NCBI GenBank assembly: GCA_038248205.1
Contig: JBBRUC010000004.1
Coordinates: forward strand, 18-64,017
Direction: 5' to 3'
DNA from: Thermoanaerobaculia bacterium
Lineage (GTDB): Bacteria > Acidobacteriota > Thermoanaerobaculia > Multivoradales > UBA5704
Length of the DNA: 64,000 nt
Positions 4,515-24,236 of this stretch are shown one piece after another (the first letter of the stretch is position 1; each line of letters starts with the position of its first letter). Below the pieces are notes generated by a model. It saw only the letters and a list, made by a program, of their open reading frames with translations. It had not been told where the DNA came from and did not search any database. A program made the position numbers and the translations under genes.

Positions 4515-4562
4515 GGGTTGGGGGGTGGCCGCCGAGATTGTGTTCGGCCGTCCGCGGACGTG

Positions 4563-5954
4563 TCAATCGGCGTCGGCCGGAGCGACCACGGCGAGCGCGG
4601 AGCCGAGCAGGCCGAGGACCAGGTAGAAGTAGTTGGCGTGGGCCTGCTTGCTCCAGGTAAAGAACGCCAACAGGGTAACGGCGGCGGCGGCGGCGAACCC
4701 GGTCGCTGTACGCGGTGCCCGGGCGAGCGCCAGACAGAGCACACCGAGCGCCGCGAGGGGAGAGAGGATCGTGAGCGAACGGGCGAGGGCCTCCGGCAGG
4801 AGCGCCAGAAAGGTCAGCGAGTCGGGTCGGTAGGGCTGCGCCAGATGGACCGCGACGACCGAAGAGTAGAACGCGGCGGGATCCCACAAGACAAATGGCA
4901 GGGTGACCGCGGCGGCGACCCCGAGCGCCTGGAGCGCCAAGCGCGGCAGCCGGCGGGCGGGCAGGCTCCACGGGGTGAGGAGCGCCAAGAGGGGCGCGAT
5001 CAAGAGCAGGTACTGCTTGGATGCGAGCAGCAGGCCGAGCAGCCCGCCGAGCAGCCGGTGCCTGCCGCGCGGCGCGGACACGGCGGAGCGCAAGAACAGC
5101 ACGAACAGCAAGACCGAAAACGGCTCGGTCCAACCCCGCTCCAGCACGTCGAACCCGCGCGGAGTGAAGAGGAAAAGGGCCGCGGCGAGCGTACCGAACC
5201 GACCCGGACGCAAGAACGCGAGCGTGGCCCCGGCCCCGGTGATCGCGAGCAGCTGAGCGAACCGATGATCGCCGCCGAAGAGAAAACCCGGGAACGCGAG
5301 GAGCAGGCTCACCGGCGGATAGGGAAAACCGAAGCGCAGCCGGTCGCCGGACCACCAGCCGGGTGCGTACAGTTTCGCCGACTCCTGCTCGTCGTAGATG
5401 TTCGGCATCGCCAGGCGGTAGGGATTGCCCCCGGCCGCGAGTTCGCGGCTCGCCTCCTGCTGGAAGACGAAGACGTCGATCTTGGGTTGCGGCCGCGAGC
5501 GGAGGATCCAAGCGCCGAGCGCGAGGTGGATCGCGAGCAGGAGGATCGTGAGCCCCTTTTGCCGCCCGGGCGGCGCGTACAGGGCGGCCAGGCCCACGGC
5601 ACCGGCAACCAGGAGGGCGCAAGGGAATCCGTAGCGATCGAGCCAGGAGGCCGGCGGCCCGCCCTGGCTCGAAAGGCGAGCGAGGCTCGCTTGGGTCAGC
5701 TGAAGGATTTGCGCCGCAAAGACCGCGGCGCCGAAAGCGACGACGACGCGCTCGGCCGGCTCGCTCCGGCTCCGATCGGTGATCCCGGCGACGATCGTCA
5801 GTCCGAGCCCCAACGCCACCGCCGTCCAGAGCAGGCCGAAGGTCGAGAAACCGGCCCCGCCCGCCAGGGTCGCCTGGCCGAGGGCGAAGAGGGCGGCCAC
5901 CAGAGCCCAGGCGGAAAGGCGCCACGCGGCGGCCGGCGCTGGGTCTTGGGTCAA
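4563..5954 (-). CDS. polytopic membrane protein, GT-C type glycosyltransferase-like (DUF2029/GT87-like)
   Basis: Many hydrophobic helices plus the loop GNPYRLAMPNIYDE...FGFPYPPVSLLLAFP, which is typical of DUF2029-type mannosyltransferases. The 573-aa track ORF overlaps the upstream barrel gene. I trimmed it to TTG at 5954, which forms a TTGA start/stop overlap with that gene's stop at 5951-5953. Confidence 0.6.
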   Translation of the reverse strand: MTQDPAPAAAWRLSAWALVAALFALGQATLAGGAGFSTFGLLWTAVALGLGLTIVAGITDRSRSEPAERVVVAFGAAVFAAQILQLTQASLARLSSQGGPPASWLDRYGFPCALLVAGAVGLAALYAPPGRQKGLTILLLAIHLALGAWILRSRPQPKIDVFVFQQEASRELAAGGNPYRLAMPNIYDEQESAKLYAPGWWSGDRLRFGFPYPPVSLLLAFPGFLFGGDHRFAQLLAITGAGATLAFLRPGRFGTLAAALFLFTPRGFDVLERGWTEPFSVLLFVLFLRSAVSAPRGRHRLLGGLLGLLLASKQYLLLIAPLLALLTPWSLPARRLPRLALQALGVAAAVTLPFVLWDPAAFYSSVVAVHLAQPYRPDSLTFLALLPEALARSLTILSPLAALGVLCLALARAPRTATGFAAAAAVTLLAFFTWSKQAHANYFYLVLGLLGSALAVVAPADAD

Positions 5955-6715
5955 AACGTGAGCGAGGCGCCGAAGGTGATCACCGTCTCGTCTTCCGACG
6001 TGCCGGTGAGCGACGGATCGGCCTCGCGCCGCCGGTCCAAGCTTTCGAGCGCGATCGAGCGCTGGACCGAGCCGTGAATCGAGAGGTTCTCGCGGATCTG
6101 GATCGGTACGTCGATCCCGAACAATGCGTCGTTGAGAGTGCCGTCCGTCACATCCTTGTTGTTGTAGCCGAAGTCCCAGCCGACCGAGGCCGAAAAATCG
6201 AGGCTCGCCTTGCGGCCCAAGGCGAAGCTGTGGCCGATGCCGAACGTGCCGTAGCCCCCCTTGACCTTGTCGTTGTCGTACCAATAGCTCACCGTGGGCG
6301 ACAACGGTCCCTCGAAGCCGAGGCTGCCGTAGACCTCGTAGGTGTCGAGGAAGACCAGGATCCGCTCGGCATCCTGGTTGAACTGATAGCTGACGGCGCC
6401 CAGCGTGAGGGTGGCGCTGCCGATCGGAATCGCGTATTCGGCGCCGAGGTCGATCTCGCGGTAATCGCCGCCTGGGATATCTCCGGCATAGCCGTAGCTA
6501 TAGATCGAAAAGTTGCCCAGGCCGAGCACGATGTAGGGGGTGAGCACCGTCTCGTCGTCGAGCAGGTCCGAGCCGCGAAACAAGTATTGGCTGCTCCGAT
6601 CGACGCCGGCCGAAAAGCTCCAGCTCTTCTCCGCCCCGTTCTGGGCGAAGCCGGGGGCGGTACTTGGCGCAAGGGCGAAAAGCGCAAGAATCGGTACGAC
6701 ACGCGAGATCTTCAT
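5951..6715 (-). CDS. outer-membrane beta-barrel protein (unknown family)
   Basis: Signal peptide MKISRVVPILALFALAPSTAPGFAQ, an alternating aromatic/polar strand pattern, and a C-terminal ...GASLTF ending in Phe. Confidence 0.7.
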   Translation of the reverse strand: MKISRVVPILALFALAPSTAPGFAQNGAEKSWSFSAGVDRSSQYLFRGSDLLDDETVLTPYIVLGLGNFSIYSYGYAGDIPGGDYREIDLGAEYAIPIGSATLTLGAVSYQFNQDAERILVFLDTYEVYGSLGFEGPLSPTVSYWYDNDKVKGGYGTFGIGHSFALGRKASLDFSASVGWDFGYNNKDVTDGTLNDALFGIDVPIQIRENLSIHGSVQRSIALESLDRRREADPSLTGTSEDETVITFGASLTF

Positions 6716-6795
6716 CGGGGTATCCCCTCGGAAATAGGCAATCCGAAGCGCGTTCTTCGACGCTTCGAGGAAGGTAAGGTTCTGTCCAGTCTACG

Positions 6796-7269
6796 TCAGC
6801 GCCCGCGCGCCGTCTTCATCGCCGCGGTGGCCTCGCGTTCCGCTTCCTTCTTCCGCTCGGTCTCGCGCTTGTCGTAGAGCTTCTTGCCCTGGGCGAGCAC
6901 GATCTCCACTTTGATCCAGTTGCCCTTGAGATAGAGCGACAGGGGAATGACGGTCTGCCCCTGCATCTGGGTCCTGCCGTAGAGCTTCTCCAACTCGCGG
7001 CGCGACAGGAGGAGCCGGCGCGGGCGCTCCGGCGGGTGGTTCTCGCGGTTGCCGTGGCTGTAAGGGCTGATGTGGGCGCCCACCAGATACGCCTCGCCGT
7101 TCCGGAATTCGACGTAGCTGTCGCGCAGTTGGACCTTGCCGGCGCGCGCGGCCTTGACCTCCGTGCCGGACAGCTCGAGGCCGGCCTCGAAGTTTTCGAG
7201 GATGTGGTATTCGTGGGTCGCCCGCTTGTTTGCCGCGAGCGGCCGGATGGCCTGTTTTTGATTCGTCAT
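6796..7269 (-). CDS. smpB: SsrA-binding protein SmpB
   Basis: 157 aa. Reads ATHEYHILENFEAGLELSGTEVKA...YLVGAHISPY...RRLLLSRRELEKL...GQTVIPLSLYLKGNWIKVEI, full-length SmpB signature with a basic C-tail. Confidence 0.95.
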   Translation of the reverse strand: MTNQKQAIRPLAANKRATHEYHILENFEAGLELSGTEVKAARAGKVQLRDSYVEFRNGEAYLVGAHISPYSHGNRENHPPERPRRLLLSRRELEKLYGRTQMQGQTVIPLSLYLKGNWIKVEIVLAQGKKLYDKRETERKKEAEREATAAMKTARGR

Positions 7270-7380
7270 CGCCGGCTCAGTCTAGCAGCGCCCGCTCCTC
7301 CCCGCCCGGTCGCCGCCCGCCCCTCCGAAGCGGGCGGAAGGGGCCGTTTGTGGGGAGAGCCTGCTAGGATCGGGCGACCG

Positions 7381-7941
7381 ATGAGATCGAGATCGGCGCT
7401 TTTTTGCGCACTCCTGTTCCTGTCTCCCGGGCTGCTCGGTCTTGCCGCCCACGCCCAAGGCAGGATCAAGGGGCTTCGGGCGACGGTCGAGGGCGACCAG
7501 GTCCAGGTGTCGCTCCGACTCGAAGGGGGGATCGACCGGCGGATGCTCGACCGGATCGACAGCGGCCTGCCGACCCGGATCGTCTACGAGATGGAACTCG
7601 CCCGGGATCGTAAGCGGTGGTACGACCAGGGGATCAAGCGGACCACGCTCGAAGTGACGGCGGTCTACGATGCGGTCGCCCGCGAGACCAACCTGCACTA
7701 TCGGCTGGCCGGCGAGCTGATCGAGAGCCGCACGGTCCGCGACCGGCCCGCGCTGCTCGACGCGCTGCGCAAGATCGAGCACGTACCGGTCTTCCGCACC
7801 CAGGGCCTCACCCCCGGGGTGCGCTACCTGGTCATCGCCCGAGCCCTGTTAGGCTCGCGCATGGTCTTCTCGATCATTCCCACCGACACCCGCACCGAGT
7901 GGGTGGAATCGAACAAGTTCCGGCCTCCGGCCGTCCCGTAA
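7381..7941 (+). CDS. DUF4390-like exported protein (partner of an NtrY-type kinase)
   Basis: Starts at ATG 7381 inside the longer track ORF. Signal peptide MRSRSALFCALLFLSPGLLGLAAHAQ. Its size and its position directly upstream of an NtrY-like kinase fit DUF4390. Confidence 0.6.
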   Translation: MRSRSALFCALLFLSPGLLGLAAHAQGRIKGLRATVEGDQVQVSLRLEGGIDRRMLDRIDSGLPTRIVYEMELARDRKRWYDQGIKRTTLEVTAVYDAVARETNLHYRLAGELIESRTVRDRPALLDALRKIEHVPVFRTQGLTPGVRYLVIARALLGSRMVFSIIPTDTRTEWVESNKFRPPAVP

Positions 7942-7959: not shown

Positions 7960-10254
7960 TTGAGTCTACGCGACCGGCTCTACGAGCAGAGCAAGAACAC
8001 GCGGACCCTGCTGCTCGGTCTGGCCGGGCTGCTGTTCGTCTTCACCGCCATCTTCTATTTGCTCCAGCGCGACCGGGAAATGCCGGCCTACCTGGTGACC
8101 AACCGGGTGCTGCTGTTCGTCCTCTGGTACGTCAACATCGTTTTGATCTTGGCGATCGTGTTCGTCCTGATGCGCGATCTGTTCAAGCTGTTTCTCGAAC
8201 GCCGCCATCGAATTCTCGGCTCGAAGCTCAAGACCAAACTGGTCGCGACCTACATCGGCCTGTCGCTCTTTCCCGTGCTGACCCTGTTCGTCATCGCCAC
8301 CGAGCTGCTCCAGGGGTCGATCGATCGCTGGTTCGCCACCCCCGTGCGCCCCGTGCTCGAACAGGGCAACGCCGTGGCGCAGGCGCTGTTCGACCAGATC
8401 CAATCTTCGTGCGCCTCGGCCGCCCGCCGAACGCTGGCCGATCTCGGCCGGGTTGATCTGTCGCGCGAGAGCGAGCGCGAGCGGCTCGGCGGCCGGTTAC
8501 GCGCCCTCCTGGCGGAGAACGACCTCGATTTTCTCGCCGTCTACGAGGGGACCGACTTCGTGCAAGGGGTGGTGGACTCCCGCTCCGGGATTTCCGATCT
8601 GCCCGAACCCGGCCGCGACCTGCTCGGCGAGGCGGTGACCGAGGGGCGCGCGGTACGCACCGTCGAGCCCCCCGGCTGGCGCGGCCGGCTGGTGCTCGCG
8701 GCGGTCTCGGGCGCCGCGGCGGGGGAGGCCGAGGCGGGCGATGGCGGAACGACCGGCGGCGCCAAGCTCGATCCCCTGGCCGCGGACCCGGCCGAGCCGA
8801 AACCGCGCATCGTGGTCGCCGGCACGTTGCTCGATCCGGTCCTCGCGGAGCGCACCGAGCGGCTGATCGAGGCGTTCCAGACCTACCGCCAGCTGGAGGT
8901 GCAGAAGGAGGATCTGCGCGCGAGCCATCTGCTGATCTTCCTGATGGTCACGCTGTTGATTCTGCTCGCTTCGACCTGGACCGGGCTGTTCCTCGCCCGG
9001 CGGGTGACCGTGCCGATCTTGGCGCTCGCCGAAGGGACCCGGCGGATCAGCAGCGGCGATCTCGATCACCGGGTGGAAGCGCCGGCCGACGACGAGCTGG
9101 GCGTGCTGGTTGCCTCGTTCAACCGGATGACCGAGGAATTGCAGCGCAGCAACCGGGCGCTTCAGACCACCAACGAGCGGCTGGCCGAGGAGCGCGCCCT
9201 GCTCGCCGCGGTGCTCGAAAACGTCGCGGCCGGTATCGTCTCGATCGATGGTTCCGGCCGGATCTTCACTTGCAACGGCGCGGCGCTCCACATGCTCCAA
9301 CAGCGCGAGGAGGAGGTCGTGGGGCGCGCCCCGGCCGAGGCGTGGAGCGATCCGGAGCGGAGCAAGCTCGCCGCCCTGCTCGCCGATCTACCCGAGGCCC
9401 CGGAGGCGGACGCCGGCCGCCGCGGCCGTCGCGCCGCGCGCGAAGTCCAGATGGTGATCGGCGGCGACTGGAAGACGTTCGAGGTCAAGGTGACGCCGAT
9501 CCGCGACGCCGCGGGATCACGCGGCCGGGTGCTCGTGCTCGAAGATCTGACCGAGCTGATCCAGGCCCAGCAGCTCGCGGCCTGGAACGAGGCGGCGCGG
9601 CGGATCGCGCACGAGATCAAGAACCCTCTCACGCCGATCCGCCTGGGCGCCGAGCGACTGCTCGAAAAGCATCGGCGCGGCGATCCGGCGCTCGGTCCCG
9701 CGATCGAAGAGGCGGCCGACATCATCGTCCGCGAGGTAGAAAACCTCCAGGAGATGGTGGACGAGTTTTCGCGCTACGCCCGCATGCCCCGGCCGCGGCC
9801 GACCCGGCTCGATCTCACCCGGTTGATCAAAGAGACCTGCCATCTGTATCGCGACGTCAAGGTCGGCGTGCCGGTGGTCTTCGCCTCCGGCTCGACCGAT
9901 GACCTCTCCGCGGTGGACCTCCCCACGGTGTGGATCGACGGCGAGCAGATCCGCCGCGCCCTGATCAACCTGATCGACAACGGGGTCGAGGCGACCGACC
10001 CGCCCGGCACCGTCACCGTCTCGGTCGATCGGGGCGAGGACACTCTCGCGATCCACGTCGCCGACACCGGGCGCGGCATCCCGCCCGAGTCGAAAGAGAA
10101 GCTGTTCCTGCCCTATTTCTCGACCAAAGGGCGCGGCACCGGGATGGGGCTCGCGATCGTCCACCGCATCGTCACCGACCACCACGGCGCGCTCCGGGTG
10201 GAAGACAACCGGCCGGCCGGCACGGTGTTCACGATCGAATTGCCGCTCGGTTGA
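7960..10254 (+). CDS. sensor histidine kinase, NtrY-like (TM-HAMP-PAS-HisKA-HATPase)
   Basis: N-terminal TM helices and a HAMP-like segment (ARRVTVPILALAEGTRRISSGDLDHRV). H-box AHEIKNPLTPI, N-box NLIDNGVEA, G-boxes DTGRGI and GTGMGLAIV. TTG start in the track. No response regulator is adjacent. Confidence 0.9.
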   Translation: MSLRDRLYEQSKNTRTLLLGLAGLLFVFTAIFYLLQRDREMPAYLVTNRVLLFVLWYVNIVLILAIVFVLMRDLFKLFLERRHRILGSKLKTKLVATYIGLSLFPVLTLFVIATELLQGSIDRWFATPVRPVLEQGNAVAQALFDQIQSSCASAARRTLADLGRVDLSRESERERLGGRLRALLAENDLDFLAVYEGTDFVQGVVDSRSGISDLPEPGRDLLGEAVTEGRAVRTVEPPGWRGRLVLAAVSGAAAGEAEAGDGGTTGGAKLDPLAADPAEPKPRIVVAGTLLDPVLAERTERLIEAFQTYRQLEVQKEDLRASHLLIFLMVTLLILLASTWTGLFLARRVTVPILALAEGTRRISSGDLDHRVEAPADDELGVLVASFNRMTEELQRSNRALQTTNERLAEERALLAAVLENVAAGIVSIDGSGRIFTCNGAALHMLQQREEEVVGRAPAEAWSDPERSKLAALLADLPEAPEADAGRRGRRAAREVQMVIGGDWKTFEVKVTPIRDAAGSRGRVLVLEDLTELIQAQQLAAWNEAARRIAHEIKNPLTPIRLGAERLLEKHRRGDPALGPAIEEAADIIVREVENLQEMVDEFSRYARMPRPRPTRLDLTRLIKETCHLYRDVKVGVPVVFASGSTDDLSAVDLPTVWIDGEQIRRALINLIDNGVEATDPPGTVTVSVDRGEDTLAIHVADTGRGIPPESKEKLFLPYFSTKGRGTGMGLAIVHRIVTDHHGALRVEDNRPAGTVFTIELPLG

Positions 10255-10271
10255 GGGCGGGGACATCTTCC

Positions 10272-10413
10272 CTGCGGGCGGCTCCTCGTAACTCGCTTCG
10301 CTCAGACAGACTCGGAGCCGTCCTCGGAAAGATGTCCCCGCCCTGCGGACAGCTCCTCGTAACTCGCTTCGCTCAGACAGACTCGTAGCCGTCCTCGGAA
10401 AGTTGTCCCTGCC
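10272..10413. repeat. two tandem copies of a 71-bp unit between convergent genes
   Basis: Direct comparison of 10272-10342 with 10343-10413 shows 5 mismatches in 71. In addition, 10255-10271 (GGGCGGGGACATCTTCC) is complementary to 10326-10343, which would form a long hairpin. Confidence 0.85.
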
Positions 10414-10416
10414 CTC

Positions 10417-11868
10417 TTACGAGGCCCCCCGGCCGAGCAGCACCACGGGAATCGTCTTGAGCAGGATTTTCAGATCGAGCGACGGCGACCAGGAGTCGAT
10501 GTATTCGAGGTCGAGTTCCATCCAGCGGTCGAAATCGACGTTGTTCCGGCCGCTGATCTGCCATAGGCAGGTGAGGCCGGGTTTCATCGACAGGCGCCGA
10601 CGCTGCCACCGCTCGTAGCGCGCGACCTCTTCCGGGATTGGCGGACGCGGCCCGACCAGGCTCATGTCGCCGCGCAGGACGTTCCAGAGCTGCGGCAACT
10701 CGTCCAGACTGAACTTCCGCAAGAAGCGGCCGATCCAGGTCACCCGCGGGTCGCTCTTGAGCTTGAACACCGGGCCGTTCATCTCGTTCAGGTGCATCAG
10801 CTCGCTCTGCTGCTCTTCGGCCCCCACCACCATGGTGCGGAACTTGTAGAGCGTGAACGAACGGCCGTTCAAGCCGCATCGGGTCTGGCGAAACAGCACC
10901 GCGCCGCCCGAGGTGACCCGGATCAACAGGGCGACCCCGGCGGCGATCGGTATCGCGAGCACCAGGAGCGACGAGGCGACCGCGACGTCGAGCGCCCGTT
11001 TGGTCATCAGCTGCAACGGATTGGTCGGCGCGGTGGCGAACGAGACGAGCGGCATGCCGTCCAGGTCTTCCAGCTCCACCCGCGCCCGGGTGTGGGGGAA
11101 CAGGTTCATCGCGAACCGGGTGCGAATTCCCTGCTCTTGCAGCGACAGGAACAGATCCTCCAGCCGGTCGAGTTCGTTGCGGTGGACCGCGAAGATCACG
11201 TCGTCGATCACCCGATCCTGGACCAGATCGGGGATGTCCTCGATCCGGCCGACGATGCGATAGCGGCGCGGCCAGTTCGCGGGGATCGCCTCGTTCTCGA
11301 CGAAGCCGAGGATGCGATAGCCCCAGAAGCGATGCTGGTCGAGCGAGTCGGCGATTTGCAGCGCGCTGTCGTTGGTGCCGACGATCAACACCGTCCGGTA
11401 GTTGAAGCCGATGCTGCGGACGTAGCGCGAGGTGAGCCGGACCGCGATCTTTTCCGACAGCAGGAACAAAAGGGAGAAGACCGCGAACAGGAGCACCCAG
11501 GAGCGGCTGACCCGGTCGGAGCCGAGAATCTCCTCGTCGATCCGCAAGGCGTAGAGCGAGAGGGTGAAAATCACCGATCCGGAAATACAGATGCGGATGA
11601 TCACCCACGCCTCGTCGAGCAGCGGGACCGTGCGGTGCGACCGGTAGCGGCCCGACGAGAGCAGCAGCGTGCCCCAGATCAGCAGGGCGAGCGGCAGAAG
11701 CGGCAGGTAGGCCGAAAGCGGATAGAGCCGGCTGGGGAAGGCGTGCGGCGCGATGTCCGGCAGCAGCCAGCTACGGAGGAGAAATGCGCAGACGAACGCC
11801 CCGGCGACCAGGGCGAGATCGACGACGAAAATGCCGACCGCGAGAATGCGTGCGCGTTCTTTGAGCAT
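10417..11868 (-). CDS. exopolysaccharide polyprenyl glycosylphosphotransferase (bacterial sugar transferase, WbaP-like)
   Basis: N-terminal TM helices and a central Rossmann-like segment. The C-terminus reads LDELPQLWNVLRGDMSLVGPRP...KPGLTCLWQISGRN, the Bac_transf signature. Confidence 0.9.
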   Translation of the reverse strand: MLKERARILAVGIFVVDLALVAGAFVCAFLLRSWLLPDIAPHAFPSRLYPLSAYLPLLPLALLIWGTLLLSSGRYRSHRTVPLLDEAWVIIRICISGSVIFTLSLYALRIDEEILGSDRVSRSWVLLFAVFSLLFLLSEKIAVRLTSRYVRSIGFNYRTVLIVGTNDSALQIADSLDQHRFWGYRILGFVENEAIPANWPRRYRIVGRIEDIPDLVQDRVIDDVIFAVHRNELDRLEDLFLSLQEQGIRTRFAMNLFPHTRARVELEDLDGMPLVSFATAPTNPLQLMTKRALDVAVASSLLVLAIPIAAGVALLIRVTSGGAVLFRQTRCGLNGRSFTLYKFRTMVVGAEEQQSELMHLNEMNGPVFKLKSDPRVTWIGRFLRKFSLDELPQLWNVLRGDMSLVGPRPPIPEEVARYERWQRRRLSMKPGLTCLWQISGRNNVDFDRWMELDLEYIDSWSPSLDLKILLKTIPVVLLGRGAS

Positions 11869-14176: not shown

Positions 14177-15117
14177 GTGCTCGCTCCGCCGGGCTTCCAC
14201 CCCTGCCAGATCGTGCCGAGTATCGCGACCAGGCCGCGCGCCGCCTCGCCCCGGCTCGTCGCCCGAGCAGGCCGGCGGAACGGCACCACCAGGAGCCGCA
14301 GCAAGATCCCGAGCGCCAGTGTCCCGCGCGCCAGGCCGGCCCAGAATCCGCCGTGATGCTTTTTCAGATACCGAAGGAGGTTGCCGTAGTAGATCGAAAG
14401 AAACGGCCCATACCCCAAACGCGGCACGCTGCTCCCCAGCCCATGGCGAAAGACCGAACCGGGCCAATAGTGGAGCGTCAGGCCCGCCTGGCCCATCCGT
14501 TTCGCCAGGTCCACGTCCTCGAACCAGGCGGGAAAGAACCCGGCATCGAACCCGCCCACCCGCTCGAAGGCCGAACGGCGAATCGCCAGCGCGGCGGCGG
14601 CCGGCTGCTCGACGCGCGCGCCCGCGGCCGGTTCTTCTCTGGGTCCATTTCCCGCGGGGATCAAAAGCGTCTGGAGCAACAAGGTGGCGGGAGAAGGAAG
14701 CGGCCGTAGCTGCCACCGATGCTGGGAGTTACCATCCTCTCCCAAAAGCTTCGGAGCGAGCCCGGCCGCATCGGGTAAAGCCGCGAAGCCCTCGACCAAC
14801 CGATCCAAAGCTCCGGGCTCCGGATGGGCATCCGGATTCAAAAACAAAAGAATCTCCCCGCGAGCCCCCGCCGCCCCCTCGTTCGCACCCCCCGCAAATC
14901 CCAGGTTCTCGCCCGGAGCCACGAGCCGGTACGCTCCCGGAGGCAGCACTCCCTCCGAGCCGTTGTCGACCACGATCAGCTCGAACCGTGGATCCCCCGG
15001 CCAAGCGGCGACCAACTCGGCTAGCTCCGTCTCATTCCGCCAATGGACGACGATTCCAGAAAGAAGAGGGGAGGAGGTAGACGAGGAATCGGGCAACATG
15101 AGGGGCGGAGCGATCAT
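14173..15117 (-). CDS. glycosyltransferase family 2
   Basis: SGIVVHWRNE...LIVVDNGSEG...NLGFAGGANEG is GT2. The start is set at ATG 15117, because the track's longer start would run through the 44-bp repeat. Confidence 0.75.
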   Translation of the reverse strand: MIAPPLMLPDSSSTSSPLLSGIVVHWRNETELAELVAAWPGDPRFELIVVDNGSEGVLPPGAYRLVAPGENLGFAGGANEGAAGARGEILLFLNPDAHPEPGALDRLVEGFAALPDAAGLAPKLLGEDGNSQHRWQLRPLPSPATLLLQTLLIPAGNGPREEPAAGARVEQPAAAALAIRRSAFERVGGFDAGFFPAWFEDVDLAKRMGQAGLTLHYWPGSVFRHGLGSSVPRLGYGPFLSIYYGNLLRYLKKHHGGFWAGLARGTLALGILLRLLVVPFRRPARATSRGEAARGLVAILGTIWQGWKPGGAST

Positions 15118-15138
15118 AGCGCCGCCAGCGCTTTCCCG

Positions 15139-15182
15139 CTTTCCCTGGGAACGCCGAGCACCAGCTCGGCATCCGAAGCGGC
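15139..15182. repeat. 44-bp direct repeat, left copy, containing hairpin GCCGAGC-ACCA-GCTCGGC
   Basis: Exact identity to 15759-15802 (CTTTCCCTGGGAACGCCGAGCACCAGCTCGGCATCCGAAGCGGC), read directly from the sequence. Confidence 0.95.
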
Positions 15183-15244
15183 CCGCAACAGCCAAGATCG
15201 CCAAAGAGACCGAGCGGGACTACAATTCCAATCGAGGTAGGACC

Positions 15245-15721
15245 ATGGCAGAGCCCCAGATCAAGCCAACAGCACCGGCCGCCCGAGCCGACGAATTCTT
15301 TCGCCACGAGAGTTTCGAAGCACTGGCTCGCGCGCAAGGAGTTCGCCCTGCAACCCGCCTCGAAAGCTACGAAGGGGGTTGGCCGGCGGATCAGCTCGAC
15401 GACGGTTTCGAGGAAGCGCTGCTCCGGGATACACCCTCCAGCGGCAACGTCTTTCTCGACCTGGGCTTTGGCGAGGAGGAGGGCGAGCGCCTGCGGATTC
15501 GGTCGTCCCTCATGATCGCGATCCGCAAGCTTATCGAGGAGCGGAGTCTCACGCAGGCGGATGCGGCGAAGCTCTTCGGTGTGACCCAGCCGCGGATCAG
15601 CAACCTGGTTCGCGGCAAAATCGACCTTTTCAGCATCGATACCCTGGTCGACATGCTAGCCCGTGGAGGAGTCCGCGTCGAAGTCTTGGTCTCCGAGGCG
15701 ATGAAGCGCGGAGCCGCATAA
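15245..15721 (+). CDS. XRE-family HTH protein, antitoxin-like (HTH_37/COG5606-like C-terminal half) with an N-terminal extension of about 75 aa
   Basis: Starts at ATG 15245 within the track ORF. The C-terminal half NVFLDLGF...RSSLMIAIRKLIEERSLTQADAAKLFGVTQPRISNLVRGKIDLFSIDTLVDMLARGG matches the XRE-type antitoxin HTH pattern. No toxin-like ORF is adjacent. Confidence 0.75.
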   Translation: MAEPQIKPTAPAARADEFFRHESFEALARAQGVRPATRLESYEGGWPADQLDDGFEEALLRDTPSSGNVFLDLGFGEEEGERLRIRSSLMIAIRKLIEERSLTQADAAKLFGVTQPRISNLVRGKIDLFSIDTLVDMLARGGVRVEVLVSEAMKRGAA

Positions 15722-16122: not shown

Positions 16123-16158
16123 CCTTCCGGAGTGGCAGGAGACCCACGCTTTCCTCTT

Positions 16159-16320
16159 TCATCGCAAGGTCTCCGACCCAACAACCAGCAACGCAGATCG
16201 CAAGCACATCGGCTGAACGGCGCCCTCGCCTTCCGCTCGATCGGTCATCAGGACGCCGTCCAGATGGTCGATCTCATGTTGGACCAATTCGGACAGATCC
16301 GGCGGCAGATCCTCCCACAT
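16159..16320 (-). pseudogene. def: peptide deformylase C-terminal fragment (relic)
   Basis: Minus-strand translation gives MWEDLPPDLSELVQHEIDHLDGVLMTDRAEGEG...*. QHEIDHLDG is PDF motif 3 (QHExDH). An in-frame stop lies directly upstream. The motif 1 (GxGxAAxQ) and motif 2 (EGCLS) regions are missing, because the neighbouring gene ends at 16375. Confidence 0.5.
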
Positions 16321-16374
16321 CGATCACCAGCAAGGCGACCACAGGAGGGCGAAGAAGCCGACCCCGAGCCGGCA

Positions 16375-17514
16375 TCAAGGTGTCGATGCGCTCGCGGCGG
16401 CCTTGGTTTCGTCCGCCGCGATGTCAGTGCTCGGGACTTCCTTCCAGGGAGCCTCGTCGAGGGCATCCCACGACAGCTTCCAGCGACCCGCACGAGCGTT
16501 CCACGCTGCCAGGTAGAGCCCGTCTCTGCCCGCAGCGATCGTGAATCGGCCAGGCTGGGAAAGCGTGAGGGGTACCCTCTCCAGACGCGTGAGCACCGGG
16601 TCGTACCGATCGATCGCAAGGCCGGAACCTGCGCCGCCAGCGGCTGCCAGGAAATACATTTTGTGATCGCGACCCTCGGTGAGATCCAAGATCGCCGCCT
16701 CCGCCCGAAACGCCTGGAAACCCGCCGGGCGCTTCGGATCGGGAGCTGCGGGCTTCGTCTCTCTGACTTTGCCGCCATCGACCGCGATACGCAACCTGGT
16801 TTGGCCGGAAGATCCGAGCTGTTCGACCACGTAGGCATACTGGCGCGCCACCCAAAGCCGGCCGCTGGAATCGGAGGTGACGAACGCCGCGTGTTGCGCT
16901 ACCGCGTCGTTGCGGCCGCGCGGGTTCGCCTCCGCTTCCTCGGCCGCAGAGAGATCCGAATATTCAGCCTCGACGTTCCAACGGTCGCCATCGAACTCCA
17001 TCAGACGGGGAACCTGCCCTTTGCGCTCTCGAAACACAAGATCGTCGGATACCGGAAGCGGCACGATCGAAACCACCGGCTGGTCACGATGGAAGCCGAT
17101 CCCGGAGGGCCGCCAATCGAGCGCCGGAATCGGCTTCTCTTTGCCGTTGACGAATCGCCTGACTCCGAGGTCAACGGACAGGAACCACACGTCTCCGCCG
17201 GGGCTCAACACCGCATCTCGGACGATTTGGGGCGCCGCCCCGACACGCTCCAGGCGCTGCGCCTCCTGCAGCTTCCCGGATCGGGCGAGTGGATAGACGT
17301 CCAGAGTCTCCGGACGGAAAAAGAAGACATTTCCTATCCGGTCGGCTCGAACGAATTGCGAACCGTCCCAGCTATCGGCCTCGCCGCTAGCAACCGGTTC
17401 CGCAACGAGCCGGCGCTCAGCCGGCGGTGCGACCGCACCCGCTGCGATACCGAAGGTACACAGCGCGACGAGCCAGCGAGCGAAGCGCCGCGCCAACATC
17501 AGTTGGGATTTCAT
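16375..17514 (-). CDS. hypothetical exported protein
   Basis: Starts at ATG 17514. Signal-like MKSQLMLARRFARWLVALCTFGIAAGA. Protein-like composition with repeated strand-like segments. No family recognised. Confidence 0.6.
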   Translation of the reverse strand: MKSQLMLARRFARWLVALCTFGIAAGAVAPPAERRLVAEPVASGEADSWDGSQFVRADRIGNVFFFRPETLDVYPLARSGKLQEAQRLERVGAAPQIVRDAVLSPGGDVWFLSVDLGVRRFVNGKEKPIPALDWRPSGIGFHRDQPVVSIVPLPVSDDLVFRERKGQVPRLMEFDGDRWNVEAEYSDLSAAEEAEANPRGRNDAVAQHAAFVTSDSSGRLWVARQYAYVVEQLGSSGQTRLRIAVDGGKVRETKPAAPDPKRPAGFQAFRAEAAILDLTEGRDHKMYFLAAAGGAGSGLAIDRYDPVLTRLERVPLTLSQPGRFTIAAGRDGLYLAAWNARAGRWKLSWDALDEAPWKEVPSTDIAADETKAAASASTP

Positions 17515-17729
17515 TGCCCCTCCCAAAGTAGTACAAGGCGTTAGCGCTCTCTTACTCTAAACTGAGGTGCTTGCCAGCCGATATCCGAGACAAGAAAATC
17601 CGCCATCCGAAGCCGGCAACCTACCGGACGCCCAGATCGAACGCGTACCTTCGCTTTCAAGCTCAGCCGACGGGAGGCATCGAGCAGTCCCGCCGAATCG
17701 AGAAACGTTTCTTCGCTCCGCCAGATCGA

Positions 17730-20700
17730 TTACTCGGAGGGTGCGCCCTCTTCCCCCCAATCCATCTCATCTTCCATCTCTTCGAGGTACGGCGGTGGAT
17801 CAACCTCAGCCTCGTCCGCCAACTCGTCGAGCGTTACGACCGAGCCGTCGTCGAGCAGCACGTCGCCACGGACGATGAACTGCAGGCCCCAGCAGAGGGG
17901 CTCAGGGTAGCCCTCGCCGCCGGTGCGGGCGGCGGTTTCCAGGAGAGCTTTGTCGTCCGCATCGCTTCGTCGCGCGATGTGGCGCGCAAGCGCGGGCCAG
18001 AGGGGATCGAGATGGGGGTCGGGTTCCAGCAGGTCGGGGGTAGGGGCGCGTTGCGGGTCGATCGAGCACCGACTCGCTTCGGCAAGCAGGTGGTCGAGAG
18101 ATGTCTTCGGCTTCTCCCTCTGCGCCAGAAGACCACGCGCGCCCGCACGGCCCAGGGAATAGAGTTCGGTCAGCACGAAATTTTCCACCCACGCGGAGCG
18201 TGGGTCGAAATCAAATTTCTCGGCCCAGTCGCGAGCCCAGTCGCGAGCCCAGTCGCGAGCCAAGTCGCGAGCCAAGTCGCGAGCCAAGTCGCGAGCCCAG
18301 TCGCGAGCCAAGTCGCGAGCCCAGTCGCGAGCCCAGTCGCGAGCCAAGTCGCGAGCCCAGTCGCGAGCCAAGTCGCGAGCCCAGTCGCGAGCCCAGTCGC
18401 GAGCCCAGTCGCGAGCCCAGTAGCGAGCCCAGTCGCGAGCCTGCGGGTCTTCCTGAGAGAGAGCCAGGGCTCTCCGCGCGAGAGCGAGTAGCGATTCGCG
18501 CGGGGCACCCGCGGCTACTGCCGATTGCAGTTGCAGACCCGCCCGGCGGCGATGGCCGGGCCAAAGGTGAAGAGCGCCGAAATCGTGCTCGGCGGGCCAG
18601 AGTGGATACGAGCCCACAAGGAGCCGACCCGCTGCGATGTCAGAGCGAGACACCCGATTTTCGCCCTGGATCGCCGCGAGGAGCGCATTCGCGCCGGGCC
18701 GAACGGGCGGGTGCGCCAACTCGGCCCACCCCTCACCGAATATCTCGCATCGCTGCCACCCGAGCCAGCACTGCCGCGCGGCGGCCGCGTCGAGCGCGTC
18801 CGCTAGAACCGCCTTTCGCTCCTCAAGTCGTGTCGCTTGCCAAGCACGCGAACAGAGGTCGGCACCGTCCGGCCAGGTCGAATCGAAAAGAGGTAGATAC
18901 AAGCTCATCCACGATTCAAACAGCGGCTCATCCCCAAGCCGGTCGGCGAAAACCGTCCCAACGAAGGAGAGAGCTTTATCCTCGGAAGGATTGTGAATCA
19001 GCTCCGTCAGCACGGCGTCGAGCGTTGGCGGATGGGGCCCGTGAATCTGCGCCGCGAGGAGGCGCAGGGTTTCCCACCAGTTGAATTCGCCGAGCCGCTC
19101 GCGAAAAGCATCGATCCGCAAGGTCTCGTTGTTCGCCGTAGCGGCGAGGTGGTAAGCCGTCAGATACTCCTGAAAGCTCAAGTGGGCAAAGCTGAGGGTG
19201 CCGTTGGCATAGTCGACCAACAGGCCGGCGACCTCGACGAGCCAGACTAGAAAGCCTTCCGGATCAATGCACTCGGCAGGAAGAAACTGGCGTATCTCTT
19301 CCCGCTTTCGCACGATCGGTGCTCGGGCTATCTTTTTATAGCCCTCGGTCTGTACCCGGAACGCCAGCTCCGCCACCCAGCGCTTCCGCGGCTCGATCTC
19401 GGCTGGACACCAGGCAAGCGGCCCGACCTGGGCGCCCTCTTTAGCTTTGGCTGCCGGTCGGGTATGCAGAAACGCCTTAATGCACTGCTCGTACAGCTGG
19501 TGCCGCCGATCCGGTAGAGGCTCCGATTCGCCGACCACCAGCATCATGGTCAGGAGAATCGGCGTCCGGGCGAGGTCGCGCGCCTCGGGGCTGGCCTGTA
19601 ACGCCACGCGAAAATGTTCCGCGTCCCGCGTCGCACTCTCGCTGCTGGAAAAGCGATGGAAGTAGCGCCCCGTCATCTCCTCGATATCGGCATCCGAAAG
19701 GGGCTGCACCTCCAGAACCTCGAACGCGTCGTAGTGCCCCGGTCGTCCTTCGCCATACGGCCGGCTGGTGACCACGGCGAGGACCCGAGGATGAGTCTTG
19801 AGAAAGCCGGCGAGCTTGGCGCGAAAGCTTTCTCCCAGAGGACCAAGTTCATCCCAGCCATCGACGAGCAGAATCGGTCGGGGGCCGTTCTGCTCGCGTA
19901 GCAAGGGCAAGATCCGCTCCTTCCAACCCGTGCCCATCTGCTCGCCGATCCAGTGGCCGATCGCCGCCTCGATCGATCGCTCCGCGCCTTTTACTTCCGG
20001 GCCTTGCCAGCGGCGCGCGACATCACGCAAGACGATCATCAACGGCAAGGCGCTCGGTTCATCCAAGAGTTGCCGAAACGTGTAGCGCGACCACGTGGTC
20101 TTACCCGCCCCGGCAACGCCGACGAGCGCGAGGTGCTTGTTGCGGCCGAGGAGATTCTTCGAAAGAAGGGGTTTCCCTTTCGCGGTCTCGTTAGGATCGA
20201 AACTCTCATCGAACCGCAGTACCTGATACATCTCGTCGAGTTGAGCGTCTTTCGCTCCGCGGATTCCTCCTGGCCTTATGGTGCCGAGAGAACCCAAGTC
20301 CCAGCGGTCGAAGTGACCCTTGAACGAGCGGCGAAACTCTTCGACGAAATCCGGGTCTGTGCCGGCGGATTTCGGAGTTGCAGTGGAGGCGGGGACGGGT
20401 GTTTTGGCGTAGCCTTCGGGTAGATCGAGCCGCTGATCGATCGTCTCCTTCAGGTTGAGCGCGAAGTTTCCGGCCTCAACAGATCCGGTGACTCGGTACC
20501 GAGCGGAGTACTCCAATCGAAACGCGCGGATTCTCGCGCTCTCAGGCTCCAGCAGAATTAGCTGCGCCGAAGCGGGCTCGTCCTTGGGCAGCACGTCGGC
20601 GTTCAAGGCAAGGCTACCGGCCGAGATCACGTGCGTATGGCCAAGGCGATCCCACGGCCACGAATGATCGTCCGTCGCGTGCTGGTGCCCGTGGAGAAGA

Positions 20701-21509
20701 AGCTGCACATGAGCATCCTTCGTCACCTTCACCAGATGCTCTCGGACCTCGATTCCCAGCGCGTCGCTCTCGTAGCGCGCGAGAAGCGCGTCATCGAACG
20801 ACTGCTTTTCCTTGAGGTAGGTCCGCCATTCATCGAGGACCGGGCGCTTAGCGCGGTCGGGATTGTGGTGAACCGCAACGATCTTCAGCTGGCTCGCCGC
20901 CTCGACTTTAAGAAGCGCGTCCATCGCAGCCTGCGCTTGCTTCGGGCCGATGACGCCTCGATGAATCTTGTGCGACTCCTCCTCGCAAGAATTGAGCGCC
21001 GCGACGACGAGTCGATGGTGCGGAAAGCGATAGATCCGCGCACCGAGGGTGAGGGGGTCCGAGATCTCCGCGAGGTCGTCGACGCCGTAGAACTCGCGCA
21101 GGAAGCTTTCATAGATGTCGAGCTTCACCGCGTCCAGCCGATCTCGGAGGCTCTCCTCGGTGAGCAGCTCCTGCTCCTCCAGGTCCGCCTCCGCCTTTTT
21201 GCACGATGCCCAATTCACGTCGTGATTGCCTGGGACGAAAACGAAACGTTGCCGCTCGATCCCGATCGCGCCCGCAAGGCCTTCGAGGAACACACGCCCC
21301 TGCGCGAACTCCGACTTCTTGCCCGCCTCCGCGACGTCCCCGGTGACGAACACCAGATCGATCTTCTTGTCAGCGAGCCCGACCTCCGTTTGCGCCACGG
21401 CCACCGCTGCGTAGAAGCTCTCCCCGAGCGCCTTGGGGTCTTTACCCTGAAAGCGGCTGTGGGGACCGAAATGAAGATCGGATAGATGGAGCAAAAGGAT
21501 CGACGGCAT
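17730..21509 (-). CDS. metallophosphoesterase-NACHT (STAND NTPase) fusion protein with a C-terminal ARD[W/L] tetrapeptide array; candidate NLR-like immune sensor
   Basis: Calcineurin-like motifs appear in order: [41 protein letters not shown] motifs: Walker [14 protein letters not shown] (about 20091-20120), Walker [13 protein letters not shown], then [11 protein letters not shown]. This is followed by a long helical region, 18 ARD[W/L] repeats and an acidic tail. ATG 21509 is preferred over the track's TTG 21530. Confidence 0.9.
18225..18440 (-). repeat. 18 x 12-bp perfect-period in-frame tandem repeat inside the NACHT gene
   Basis: The plus-strand unit is CCAGTCGCGAGC or CAAGTCGCGAGC (ARDW or ARDL). 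Unit order in the protein is W,W,W,W,W,L,W,L,W,W,L,W,L,L,L,W,W,W. The only other substitution is D to Y in unit 2. Confidence 0.95.
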
Positions 21510-21701
21510 GTCCCGGCCTTTCGGAATCAAGGATCAAGAAAGTATGCGGCGATTCTATGCGAGACGGCGGGGGCCTGCGCCGTGAGCCGGCCGCAGAGGG
21601 CGAGGAGCGTCTTCATCTCGTTGAAAATGTCGGCGATCCCGGGGTACTTCGCGACATCCGGCTCCAGGTTGTCGACCTTGTCGGTACGACCGAAACGGCG
21701 C

Positions 21702-21892: not shown

Positions 21893-22139
21893 CGCTATAC
21901 GCCGGAGAGTTCACACGGCGGGTGGCGCATTTCTCTTGCCGCGCCGGCAATTGCGGAGCCGGCTCGGCAAGCCGCTTGCCCCGTTCACGCCGCCATCGCG
22001 GCCGGCGTTTGCCGCCCGTCGGACTCGCAAAGCGCGCGCGGCCGAACAGTCGGCGTGGGTAAACGCCGCCAACTCCTCCGAGGCGGACGATTACCGGTGC
22101 CCGCCGCCCCCGGCGAGAAGCCGCGTACAATCCACCGCC

Positions 22140-24236
22140 ATGTTCCTCGTCGACCTCCTCGGCGCGCTGCTGACGCTTGCGGCGTTCTCGTTCCTTGGCC
22201 TTTCCGGCTACTTGGCGGCGACCTCCCTGCTGGGCGAACGGGCGCGGCGAGATGCGCTCGCCCTCTCGGTCGCCTGGGGGCTTTCGGCGCTCTCGATCGC
22301 TCTTCTGATCGGCCTCCTTCTCGGATCGATTGGCCAACTCCGGATCGACCTCGCGCTCTCAGGGTTGGCGCTGCTCGCGATCCTGCAACTCCAGCGGGCC
22401 AAGCGGGCGGACGATCCGTGGGGACCTGCCCGCCGGCTGGGGTGCCGCGCTTGGGCTCATCTGGCCGAGCGGCCGGCGCTGGCGATCCTCACCGTCCATG
22501 CGGCAGGGAGCGAGCTGCTGCGCGGGCTGCTGCGGCCGCCCTTGAGTTGGGACAGCTTGATGTACCACCTGCTGCTCTCCGCCACCTGGTTGCAGGAGAA
22601 GAACCTGGCGCCGGTGTTCGGGCCGGCGCCCACCAACTTCTATGGCTTCCAGCCGGGCAACGGCTCGCTCTGGTTCTGGTGGTGGATGGCCCCGTCGCAC
22701 AGCGAATTCTGGGTCAACCTGGGTTCCGCTCTTCCCTGGCTACTGCTCGGCCTCGCGGCCGGTGCCGTGGCGCGGCAACTCGGGGCGGCCAAGAGCTGGC
22801 CGGTGGCAACGTACCTCACCCTGCTCACCCCGTGCATTCTGCGCTTCGTCGGCGCGCAGTACGTCGATCTGCTGGTGGGGGCGGGCATCGCCGCGGCGGC
22901 GTACTTCGCGCTCCTCTGGCTCGACGAGCCGCGCTGGGGAACGGCGCTCCTGGTAGGGGCCGGGCTCGGGATCGCCTCCGGGGCCAAAGTGCTGGCGCTG
23001 CCGTACGTCCTGGCCTTTGCCGGCGCGCTGCTGCTCGCGGCGGCGTGGCGCGGCGGATGGCGGGTGCGGGCAGGGCAGACCATCGCCGCGATCCTCCTCG
23101 CGTCGTTGCTCGGCGGCTACTGGTACGCACGGAACCTGGCCTACGGCGCCGGGCCGCTCGGTCTGCGCTGCGAGGGGACGGCGGCGGGGGCGGAGGCCGA
23201 TCGCGGCGAGAGGCCGACGATTCCGCGGCCCAATAGTGTGCTCGACCAGTTCGGCGCTTACCTCGGCTCGGGCCAGTTGATCGACGCGGGCCTCGGCGTC
23301 GTACGTCCGCAGTCGCTCGAATTGGGCCTGGGACCGCAGCTATTTCTGCTCCTTCCGCTGCTCCTTCTTCCTCTAGGCTTTCCGCGCGGGCGCCGCCCTG
23401 CCGTGCTCTTGATCTGGAGCCAGATCGCGGCGCAGGCTTTCGTTTGGGCGACCGTGCCCTACGCCGATCACGGCACGATCTACGCCAATATTCGATATCT
23501 GGACGGCGCGGTGGCGCTCGCTTGGGCCGGCGGGGTGGCGCTGCTCACGCTGCGCTCGGTCGCTTCGCGTTGGATCGAGGGGCTGGCGCTCGTGCTCGCG
23601 GTCCAGGGGCTGCTCCAACTGCATGCCGAAATGCCGCGCGGTGTCCGGCTCGCGATGGCGGTGGCGGATGTCGCGTTGGTCGCCTTGGCGCTGTCTCCGG
23701 CTTTGCGCCTGCGGCTTCGCCTACGCGCCCGGGGTTTGGCGGTCGGCGGGGTTGTTTTGATTCTTGCGCTCGCGCCGATCCTCACCGCCTTCCGGGCCGC
23801 CGACCGCGGCCGGGCGATGGCCTACGAGTTGACCGTCCACAAAACGCCGATCGAGCTGTTCGCCCGTGCTTGGAGCTGGCTCGATCGCTTCGGCGAGGAC
23901 GGCACGGTCGCCTTGGCGAGCAGCCCGCTGCACTATTTCGTCTATCCGGCGATGGGACCGCGGCTCGAACGCAAAGCGATCTTCGCCAACGTCAACGCTG
24001 CAGACCACGCCAACGTCGCGGAGTATCCCGCCTGCGATCCGCGCGTCGACCTCGATCCCCAAGCCTGGCTCGCGAACCTTGCCAAGCACGACGTCCGCTG
24101 GCTTCACCTGATGCGCTACCCGGGCACCGAATATCTACCCGAGCGCACCTGGGCCGACGCCCTGCCGGATCGCTTCACGCTCCGCTACGAGGACGACGGC
24201 AGTCGAATCTACGAGGTGACCGCGCGAGGGAGGTAG
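22140..24236 (+). CDS. polytopic membrane protein, GT-C glycosyltransferase-like (ArnT/PMT-like)
   Basis: Starts at ATG 22140 within the track ORF. More than 10 hydrophobic helices, then a soluble C-terminal domain. Loop LLRPPLSWDSLMYHLL. The family call is tentative. Confidence 0.65.
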   Translation: MFLVDLLGALLTLAAFSFLGLSGYLAATSLLGERARRDALALSVAWGLSALSIALLIGLLLGSIGQLRIDLALSGLALLAILQLQRAKRADDPWGPARRLGCRAWAHLAERPALAILTVHAAGSELLRGLLRPPLSWDSLMYHLLLSATWLQEKNLAPVFGPAPTNFYGFQPGNGSLWFWWWMAPSHSEFWVNLGSALPWLLLGLAAGAVARQLGAAKSWPVATYLTLLTPCILRFVGAQYVDLLVGAGIAAAAYFALLWLDEPRWGTALLVGAGLGIASGAKVLALPYVLAFAGALLLAAAWRGGWRVRAGQTIAAILLASLLGGYWYARNLAYGAGPLGLRCEGTAAGAEADRGERPTIPRPNSVLDQFGAYLGSGQLIDAGLGVVRPQSLELGLGPQLFLLLPLLLLPLGFPRGRRPAVLLIWSQIAAQAFVWATVPYADHGTIYANIRYLDGAVALAWAGGVALLTLRSVASRWIEGLALVLAVQGLLQLHAEMPRGVRLAMAVADVALVALALSPALRLRLRLRARGLAVGGVVLILALAPILTAFRAADRGRAMAYELTVHKTPIELFARAWSWLDRFGEDGTVALASSPLHYFVYPAMGPRLERKAIFANVNAADHANVAEYPACDPRVDLDPQAWLANLAKHDVRWLHLMRYPGTEYLPERTWADALPDRFTLRYEDDGSRIYEVTARGR

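Follow-up and report, generated by a model that had tools for sequence, protein, structure and literature searches.

From animals and plants to fungi and bacteria, receptors of the NOD-like receptor (NLR) type rely on C-terminal repeat domains to sense their triggers. Against this background, a gene on contig JBBRUC010000004.1 of a Thermoanaerobaculia bacterium (Acidobacteriota; assembly GCA_038248205.1) poses a question: what is the role of a tract in which eighteen almost identical units of only 12 nucleotides, four residues each, follow one another in the C-terminal part of a putative NLR-like protein? We analysed this tetrapeptide array within a stretch of 64,000 nucleotides (positions 18 to 64,017 of the contig), hereafter called the window; coordinates refer to the window unless another locus is named. 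The explanation that we favour, with moderate confidence, is that the array serves as a functional module of helical repeats in the sensor/regulatory domain of a stand-alone NLR-like protein, that such arrays are made homogeneous again from time to time, and that this one was recently regenerated in this genome by tandem amplification.

A recently amplified tetrapeptide array

Unit-by-unit parsing resolved positions 18225-18440 into 18 contiguous in-frame units of 12 nt, encoded on the minus strand in the frame of the open reading frame (ORF) 17730-21530 and corresponding to residues 1031-1102 of its product (18 units of A-R-[D/Y]-[W/L]). The consensus unit GCTCGCGACTGG (ARDW) accounts for 11 of the 18 units. 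Six others (units 6, 8, 11, 13, 14 and 15) read GCTCGCGACTTG (ARDL), with the W-to-L variant bases at 18370, 18346, 18310, 18286, 18274 and 18262, and the remaining one (unit 2) reads GCTCGCTACTGG (ARYW, Tyr encoded by TAC), with the D-to-Y variant base at 18422. Altogether, 209 of the 216 bases agree with the consensus. The order of residues at position 4, from the N- to the C-terminus, is WWWWWLWLWWLWLLLWWW, and the plus-strand text of the array is GCCCAGTCGCGA. Tandem Repeats Finder (TRF) delimited the tract as 18223-18441 (period 12, 18.2 copies, 95% matches) with a score of 389, the top one in the window, where all other period-12 rows had at most 3.2 copies. The original prediction for this DNA had described 18 near-identical in-frame units of 12 bp and their W/L order, and both were reproduced exactly; the strand was corrected, the coding strand being the minus one.

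Codon choice within the array was found to be uniform. All 18 Ala codons are GCT, which represents 8-13% of Ala codons in the genome, and all six Leu codons are TTG, which represents ~10% of Leu codons. Given the amino acids of the array, independent codon choice would produce this with P ~1e-36. Such uniform use of rare codons indicates that the units share recent common descent, in agreement with the earlier proposal that the homogeneity of the DNA reflects recent amplification or concerted evolution, and a chance origin of the array is excluded. In this genome, the module was thus assembled anew in recent times: a single founder unit was amplified in tandem, together with its W-to-L and D-to-Y derivatives, each of which differs from it by one base. 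This amplification probably took place through replication slippage or unequal recombination. An exact 60-nt tandem duplication within the array (18285-18404, minus strand), in which units 4-8 equal units 9-13 (W W L W L), is compatible with duplication of several units at once, although the identity of the two blocks is not significant alone, as 15% of random W/L orders contain such a block.

Other interpretations of the tract as a genetic element were rejected. Coding on the plus strand was discarded since full-length homologues exist only for the minus-strand ORF, and an RNA gene since no Rfam or tRNA match was obtained within the window. As for a diversity-generating retroelement, the variable bases are confined to G-to-T or G-to-A changes at the same two sites of the unit, and GAC always retains its adenine; moreover, no template repeat was seen, and the window contains neither a second period-12 array nor a paralogue. 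We also noted that every unit includes the palindrome TCGCGA (an NruI site), giving 18 sites spaced 12 bp apart. This periodicity appears incidental, because two arrays of homologues which use other codons (L088 and L004) are devoid of TCGCGA.

The array-bearing protein

The ORF harbouring the array comprises 1266 codons from a mechanically assigned TTG start to the stop codon at 17730-17732 (17730-21530, minus strand) and encodes a metallophosphoesterase-NACHT-helical sensor protein. Its true start is likely to be the ATG at 21507-21509 (Met8), which is preferred because it agrees with the homologue consensus M-x5-LHLSDLHFG. The N-terminal domain (residues 13-285; 20676-21494, minus strand) is a calcineurin-like metallophosphoesterase, matching Pfam PF00149 with 43.7 bits against a cut-off of 21.5 and retaining all five motifs of such enzymes (D18xH, G64D, G101NHD, H221H and G281HxH). 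This domain is presumed to be the effector. Below thresholds, it also matched the NCBIfam anti-phage phosphoesterase DS9_1 (7e-30) as well as PDC-S60 and an effector endonuclease model of PADLOC (~1e-11).

The NACHT NTPase core follows (residues 467-625; 19656-20132, minus strand), with intact Walker A (GVAGAGKT(T), residue 471) and Walker B (ILLVDGWDE, residue 553) motifs, which conform to GxxxxGK[ST] and hhhhDGxDE, respectively; in precomputed annotation, PF05729 is carried by most full-length homologues. Between the core and the array lies a helical region (residues 700-1030; 18441-19433, minus strand) closed by a conserved anchor, LWPxxRRxxGxRLQ. According to structural modelling, this region would consist of NLR-type winged-helix and helical domains and then the first half of the sensor domain. 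Its best Foldseek matches in the PDB were helical modules of NLRC4, NLRP3, NLRP1, NLRP9 and NOD2 (probability 0.75-0.97, and 0.85-0.97 for the first four; E >=0.1, TM-score <=0.22). Behind the array, a conserved C-terminal domain (residues 1103-1266; 17733-18224, minus strand) was recognised from the family consensus, the motifs of which include WxxDFxxxExxSxGR and WGLxxIVRGDVxLxDGSxxTLDEL. No Pfam or NCBIfam family matched the last ~640 residues of the protein, and no paralogue of the gene was found within the window. The host appears to be a stand-alone bacterial NLR-like protein composed of a metallophosphoesterase, a NACHT module and an all-helical C-terminal region. Given these domains and the Walker motifs, the array belongs to the C-terminal part, on the sensor side, of a STAND/NACHT protein, where it had been anticipated.

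Distribution of the repeat among homologues

A search of 5.8 billion proteins retrieved 165 relatives, most of them full length (~1300 residues) and of the same Metallophos-NACHT architecture. The best one, from a Holophagales metagenome-assembled genome (MAG), shared 63% identity over 99% of the query; others originated from Thermoanaerobaculia and other Acidobacteriota, Polyangium (Myxococcota), Kofleriaceae, Magnetococcales, Hydrogenedentes and further taxa. When the C-terminal 367 residues (900-1266) were used, 465 representatives were obtained at E <=1e-3 from 1.84 billion proteins with 50% clustering.

Degenerate x-R-[D/Y]-[W/L/F] arrays of 5-36 units are present at the same site (residues ~1020-1150) in most of the ~120 full-length homologues, for example ARDW/ARYL/ARYW in P0036, SRDF/SRYF in P0009, ARDF/ARYF in P0028 and GRDF/VRYF in P0073. 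The possibility, raised at the outset, that orthologues are entirely without the array was therefore not borne out. In a set of 461 units taken from genomic loci, Arg occupies position 2 in 77% and Leu, Phe or Trp occupies position 4 in 89%; position 3 holds Asp (47%), Tyr (15%) or Val (12%), and the residue at position 1, which is small or polar, varies by lineage. On the basis of these sequences, the general motif of the module can be written as small residue - Arg - Asp/Tyr - Trp/Leu/Phe. Conserved anchors enclose the module on both sides in essentially all members of the family: LWPxxRRxxGxRLQ precedes it and WxxDFxxxExxSxGR follows it. The anchors are separated by a spacer of 74-220 residues (median 152; 122 in the window protein), and no mod-4 bias in spacer length was detected across homologues, which form a continuum from perfect arrays to sequence without visible repeat.

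The module also recurs behind NACHT modules having other N-terminal domains. An Mrr_cat-NACHT protein of a Thermoanaerobaculia MAG (L035) contains 31 units of GRDF/DRYF/VRAF, and comparable arrays are present in two TIR-NACHT proteins (P0125 and P0133) and in a homologue with an additional TIR domain (P0083). In filamentous cyanobacteria, transmembrane-NACHT proteins harbour LNRD/LYRD/LNRV arrays of up to 36 units (L054, L044, L037, L053, L041, L049 and L071), in one case (L054) together with an FGE-sulfatase fragment. In at least five phyla and with several effector types, the motif retains its Arg (position 2) and its large hydrophobic residue (position 4).

As had been supposed, the repeat lies outside named families. 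No Pfam family covered the array in seven proteins tested (the window protein and six array-bearing relatives, E <=1), no NCBIfam entry covered it in the window protein, and a PDB sequence search with the array yielded only chance matches to designed repeat proteins. With the bare array of 72 residues as a query, only two matches were obtained in the index of 5.8 billion proteins, because the bias correction of HMMER suppresses it. Since composition-bias filters in profile searches hide such arrays, these are likely under-annotated.

Several architectures among the retrieved proteins deserve mention. A Magnetococcus protein of 1444 residues (P0083) possesses a TIR domain (residues 532-651) after the NACHT Walker A region in addition to an N-terminal metallophosphoesterase, and would thus combine two putative effector domains in a single protein. 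In six of nine cyanobacterial loci (L037, L044, L047, L053, L054 and L057), the NACHT ORF and the LNRD-array ORF are in different frames; in L054, they (4210-6366 and 6282-7550) overlap by 85 nt. A true two-gene arrangement, a frameshift or a sequencing error are all possible causes. The other three loci (L041, L049 and L071) have a single ORF of ~1050 residues. Finally, very long x-R/H-D-[L/M/F] arrays occur in non-NACHT proteins (P0139, residues 542-761; P0176, residues 568-805), which were retrieved solely via the array part of the query. One of the non-NACHT array proteins has a Roquin ROQ domain and 55 units of alternating ARDL/GHDM, and another has PRDM/PRDL arrays.

Predicted structure

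An AlphaFold2 model of residues 700-1266, built with 89 homologues, is all-helical, with a mean predicted local distance difference test (pLDDT) of 89 and a predicted template modelling score (pTM) of 0.87. Values mostly exceed 90 in residues 700-1030 and in the C-terminal domain. For the array itself, the model shows four helices, each 11-24 residues long; the two ends of the array are packed onto the flanking domain with pLDDT above 80, and at its C-terminal end pLDDT returns to 82-91. In a Polyangium orthologue with a degenerate array, helices of 13-22 residues were predicted, the first two with pLDDT of 80-90. The models of both proteins thus support a helical array, as the original prediction had it. 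No structural neighbour of the sensor or the array was found by Foldseek, the NLR helical modules matching only the upstream part.

If the array formed an ideal alpha-helix, the four positions of the unit would produce four stripes, each winding by ~40 degrees per unit. Trp/Leu would then be placed beside Ala, forming a hydrophobic face, Asp/Tyr would be placed beside Arg, and salt bridges between Asp(i) and Arg(i+3) would be possible.

Evolutionary dynamics of the arrays

Homogeneity at the DNA level differs widely among arrays (60-96% TRF matches), and the array in the window is the most homogeneous long one. Young arrays were observed elsewhere too, namely in L087 (87% matches), L088 (90%), L004 (96%), L002 (88%) and L054 (86%). 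The first two, which were detected in metagenomes with a degenerate (ARDW)x3 DNA pattern, are also long (24 units each) and belong to genes with 46% and 40% protein identity to the window gene, respectively. Scaffold codons are nearly invariant inside each array, unlike between arrays, where GCT-CGC (window, L087), GCG-CGG (L088) and GCG-CGA (L004) are encountered. In L087 (10642-10929), the 12-nt unit is identical to that of the window (GCT CGC GAC TGG, with TTG for Leu); this could be due to a coincidence of codon choice, shared ancestry of the arrays or exchange between them.

In the four young ARDW arrays, variation clusters at two sites of the unit, nt 7 (G/T/A, for D/Y/N) and nt 11 (G/T, for W/L as TGG/TTG). 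The latter toggle was rejected as a general feature, as Leu is mostly encoded by CTC or CTG in diverged arrays; it marks young arrays only. Synonymous to non-synonymous codon differences from the array consensus amount to 0:7 in the window, 1:19 in L087, 1:19 in L088 and 0:4 in L004, and to 1:35, 3:36 and 4:41 in other arrays, counts which are limited by the fact that array units are copies and not independent events. When distinct mutation types were tallied from unit sequences, ~3 synonymous and 16 non-synonymous ones were obtained. As ~19% of changes are expected to be synonymous for this unit, the tally is consistent with the neutral expectation, and evidence for selection on unit variation is weak.

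Between close relatives, the arrays are stable. Six Polyangium orthologues share an identical, indel-free layout of 16 units, and their array is 94-100% identical as compared with 88-99% for the protein overall. This better conservation of the array indicates purifying selection. Neither array indels nor an excess of substitutions in the array were found in 11 other homologue pairs of 92-100% identity, and length differences were seen only among distant homologues. The suggestion that array length might be hypervariable consequently holds on the time-scale of the family, where the spacer ranges so widely, but not among these 11 pairs and the Polyangium orthologues. For the window gene, a scan of GTDB genomes found nothing closer than 61% identity, and a search of metagenomes with the protein sequence of the C-terminal tail yielded no relative. 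As a separate observation, one contig (L123) encodes two tandem Metallophos-NACHT paralogues, P0036 and P0065 (8001-11894 and 12620-16534), whose arrays are made of different unit types and are not equally homogeneous at the DNA level (84% versus 70%).

Most simply, the W/L and D/Y differences may be regarded as tolerated alternatives at the two least constrained positions, with no designed binary code. The binary pattern of W and L does not have to represent a code: both kinds of variant are single G-to-T changes leading to residues that are common alternatives family-wide, and the spread of a tolerated variant by unit duplication explains them.

Proposed role of the array and alternative explanations

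By analogy with the repeat sensors of other NLRs, the module may supply a helical surface or arm which binds the trigger or keeps the protein auto-inhibited. On the model of characterised bacterial NACHT and Avs proteins, this sensor would keep the polypeptide inactive as long as no trigger is bound. Binding would release NACHT-driven oligomerisation, and oligomerisation might in turn activate the phosphoesterase, acting as a nuclease or a nucleotide phosphodiesterase.

Several observations weigh against a functional helical sensor module. In the model of the window protein, pLDDT falls from 73 to 42 in the middle of the array (42-59 mid-array), and the later array helices of the Polyangium orthologue reach only 53-64. 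In both models, predicted helices break inside the repeat pattern without any Gly or Pro. Taken with the low mid-array confidence, these breaks make the modelled tertiary arrangement of the array tentative. The NACHT match of the host protein to PF05729 (24.3 bits, E 3e-5) is just below the 26.7-bit cut-off, and among seven genomic contexts inspected there were no conserved partner genes and no defence island. Furthermore, some homologues have non-repetitive sequence between the same anchors, which implies that the repeat character itself is dispensable.

Four other explanations were considered. The first, which we regard as unlikely, is that the array, as an NLR repeat of high internal conservation, constitutes a diversifying recognition code. 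Concerted evolution would fix the scaffold codons, selection would keep positions 3 (D/Y/N) and 4 (W/L) variable, and the order of units would set ligand specificity, so that reshuffling quickly yields new specificities. In favour of this, variation in the four young arrays is concentrated at nt 7 and nt 11 on three synonymous backgrounds and is almost all non-synonymous, the tandem paralogues of L123 have different arrays, and there is a precedent in fungi, where positively selected sites lie on the binding face (Dyrka 2014, PMC4986451). However, the units are copies, and their distinct mutation types are near the synonymous fraction expected for the unit. Both hot changes are G-to-T transversions, and other G-to-T options would give R-to-L or W-to-C at the conserved Arg or Trp, or else A-to-S. 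From this, it follows that mutation bias combined with purifying selection reproduces the pattern of variation. In addition, W and L are chemically similar, and degenerate arrays show no excess of substitutions or indels between close relatives. The idea can be extended to a proposal that we likewise consider improbable: the x-R-[D/Y]-[W/L/F] arrays would be a new minimal class of NLR sensor repeats, one helical turn per unit, present in NACHT proteins of at least five phyla and regenerated from time to time by tandem amplification, with adjoining variable positions forming a combinatorial recognition stripe and the order of units determining trigger specificity. If this were true, the stripe arrays would be the bacterial counterpart, built from four-residue units, of the hypervariable sensor repeats in fungal NLRs.

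It is also rather unlikely that the array is a neutral low-complexity filler, i.e. that its sequence has no specific role and that it is tolerated as a spacer or linker, liable to slippage, where two folded parts of the sensor domain meet. The broad range of inter-anchor spacer lengths, the non-repetitive sequence at this site in some homologues and the low mid-array confidence of the model would all fit a filler, as would the incidental occurrence of short ARDW runs in unrelated proteins (e.g. an IS30-like transposase, L117). A filler would, on the other hand, hardly be expected to preserve the Arg of position 2 and the large hydrophobic residue of position 4 in at least five phyla and with several types of effector, nor to be more conserved than the remainder of the protein, as in Polyangium, nor to maintain its length between close relatives.

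NLR-type proteins work by oligomerising. The hydrophobic residue at strictly every fourth position of a predicted helix could accordingly be taken for a self-association element, whose period-4 stripe drives oligomerisation in a coiled-coil-like manner or into higher-order filaments and does not serve sensing. We find this quite improbable. The hydrophobic period is 4.0 throughout the array, unlike the 3.5 (heptad) or 3.67 (hendecad) of canonical coiled coils, and helix geometry suggests that an implausibly tight right-handed supercoil would be required. The array is moreover internal, with both ends modelled as packed on the same monomeric domain, and Foldseek found no structural neighbour of it. 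Finally, the unit count or W/L order of this 216-bp near-perfect repeat might have been mis-assembled from short reads, as the tract exceeds the typical short-read length and no independent copy of the locus was found in the GTDB genome and metagenome scans, but we give this very little credence: the tract is in frame with conserved sequence on both flanks, comparable arrays exist in many independent assemblies, and the 122-residue spacer falls inside the family range, though at its short end.

Comparison with known systems

The functional sensor module that we favour can be compared with several known arrangements. Bacterial NACHT (bNACHT) proteins have effectors that include calcineurin-like phosphoesterases, and their listed sensor repeats comprise LRR, TPR, HEAT, beta-propeller and pentapeptide repeats, in addition to FGS domains (Kibby et al., bioRxiv 10.1101/2022.07.19.500537). 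The host protein resembles bNACHT and Avs proteins in being a single polypeptide with an enzymatic effector, a NACHT NTPase and a C-terminal sensor, encoded by a gene that stands alone. Its four-residue repeat, in contrast, is absent from the list of Kibby et al., and Kaur et al. 2020 likewise do not mention it. A literature search for tetrapeptide or four-residue repeats with NACHT, STAND or NLR brought nothing relevant in open-access text, which is no proof of novelty. Among NLR repeat sensors, this sensor repeat of four residues appears to be a variant not described before.

In fungal NLRs, WD40, ANK and TPR repeats are known for high internal conservation, defined as unit-to-unit identity above 85% across a tract of at least 100 residues (Dyrka et al. 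2014, PMC4986451), and the same was noted for WD and TPR repeats of bacterial NLRs (Dyrka et al. 2020 preprint). The window array is similar in that its units are near-identical at the DNA level, are located C-terminally to NACHT and differ at few codon positions, and in that unit number varies between homologues. With respect to the fungal criterion, its units are 92-100% identical (DNA), but the tract of 72 residues is below 100. It further differs in having a unit of 4 residues instead of 33-42, and no repeat-number polymorphism was seen among the 11 close pairs and the six Polyangium orthologues, whose arrays are degenerate.

Pentapeptide repeats share with the present arrays a very short unit, long arrays, an occurrence in STAND and conflict-system proteins and enrichment in cyanobacteria and other multicellular bacteria. 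While those repeats (A(D/N)LXX) form a right-handed beta-helix, the window array has a period of exactly 4, an x-R-D-hydrophobic pattern and a predicted alpha-helical structure, and Pfam Pentapeptide gave no match at E of 0.1 or 1. Alpha-solenoids of the TPR and HEAT type are reminiscent of the model, in which helices of 11-24 residues and short turns are continuous with an all-helical domain. The period of the array is nevertheless one helical turn and not a helix-turn-helix, its turns are of low confidence and without Gly or Pro, and no Pfam match to TPR, HEAT, LRR, ANK or WD40 was obtained in the window protein or the six array-bearing relatives.

Genomic context

Neighbours of the NLR-like gene are exopolysaccharide glycosyltransferases, an HTH_37 protein and unannotated ORFs, which do not make up a recognisable defence island. 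The HTH_37 (HigA-like) domain is encoded near 15.5-15.7 kb. Large putative ORFs flanking the gene on both sides (among 14684-15721, 16132-17544 and 21936-24236, all on the plus strand) had no Pfam match. The window also contains an intergenic 71-nt direct repeat (10270-10415; 2.1 copies, 93% matches, TRF score 257) between genes for a HAMP-PAS histidine kinase (7960-10254, plus strand) and a sugar transferase (10417-11868, minus strand).

The closest homologues, P0001 and P0002 (L081 14354-23915 and L082 1-6728), adjoin an arginine biosynthesis cluster that includes argininosuccinate synthase, OTCase, acetylglutamate kinase and ArgR; the window gene has other neighbours. In L081, a PIN/DUF6364 toxin-antitoxin pair is located immediately upstream.

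Implications

The repeat described here speaks to the question of how bacteria diversify the sensors of their NLR-type proteins. It has no name, its unit is the shortest so far seen behind a NACHT domain, and it is conserved across phyla and effector types. Some lineages display clear recent concerted amplification of the arrays, and others display their strong conservation. The ~465 clusters (at 50% identity) constitute a defined family in which repeat turnover can be related to sensing, with a member in the window whose enzymatic motifs are intact.

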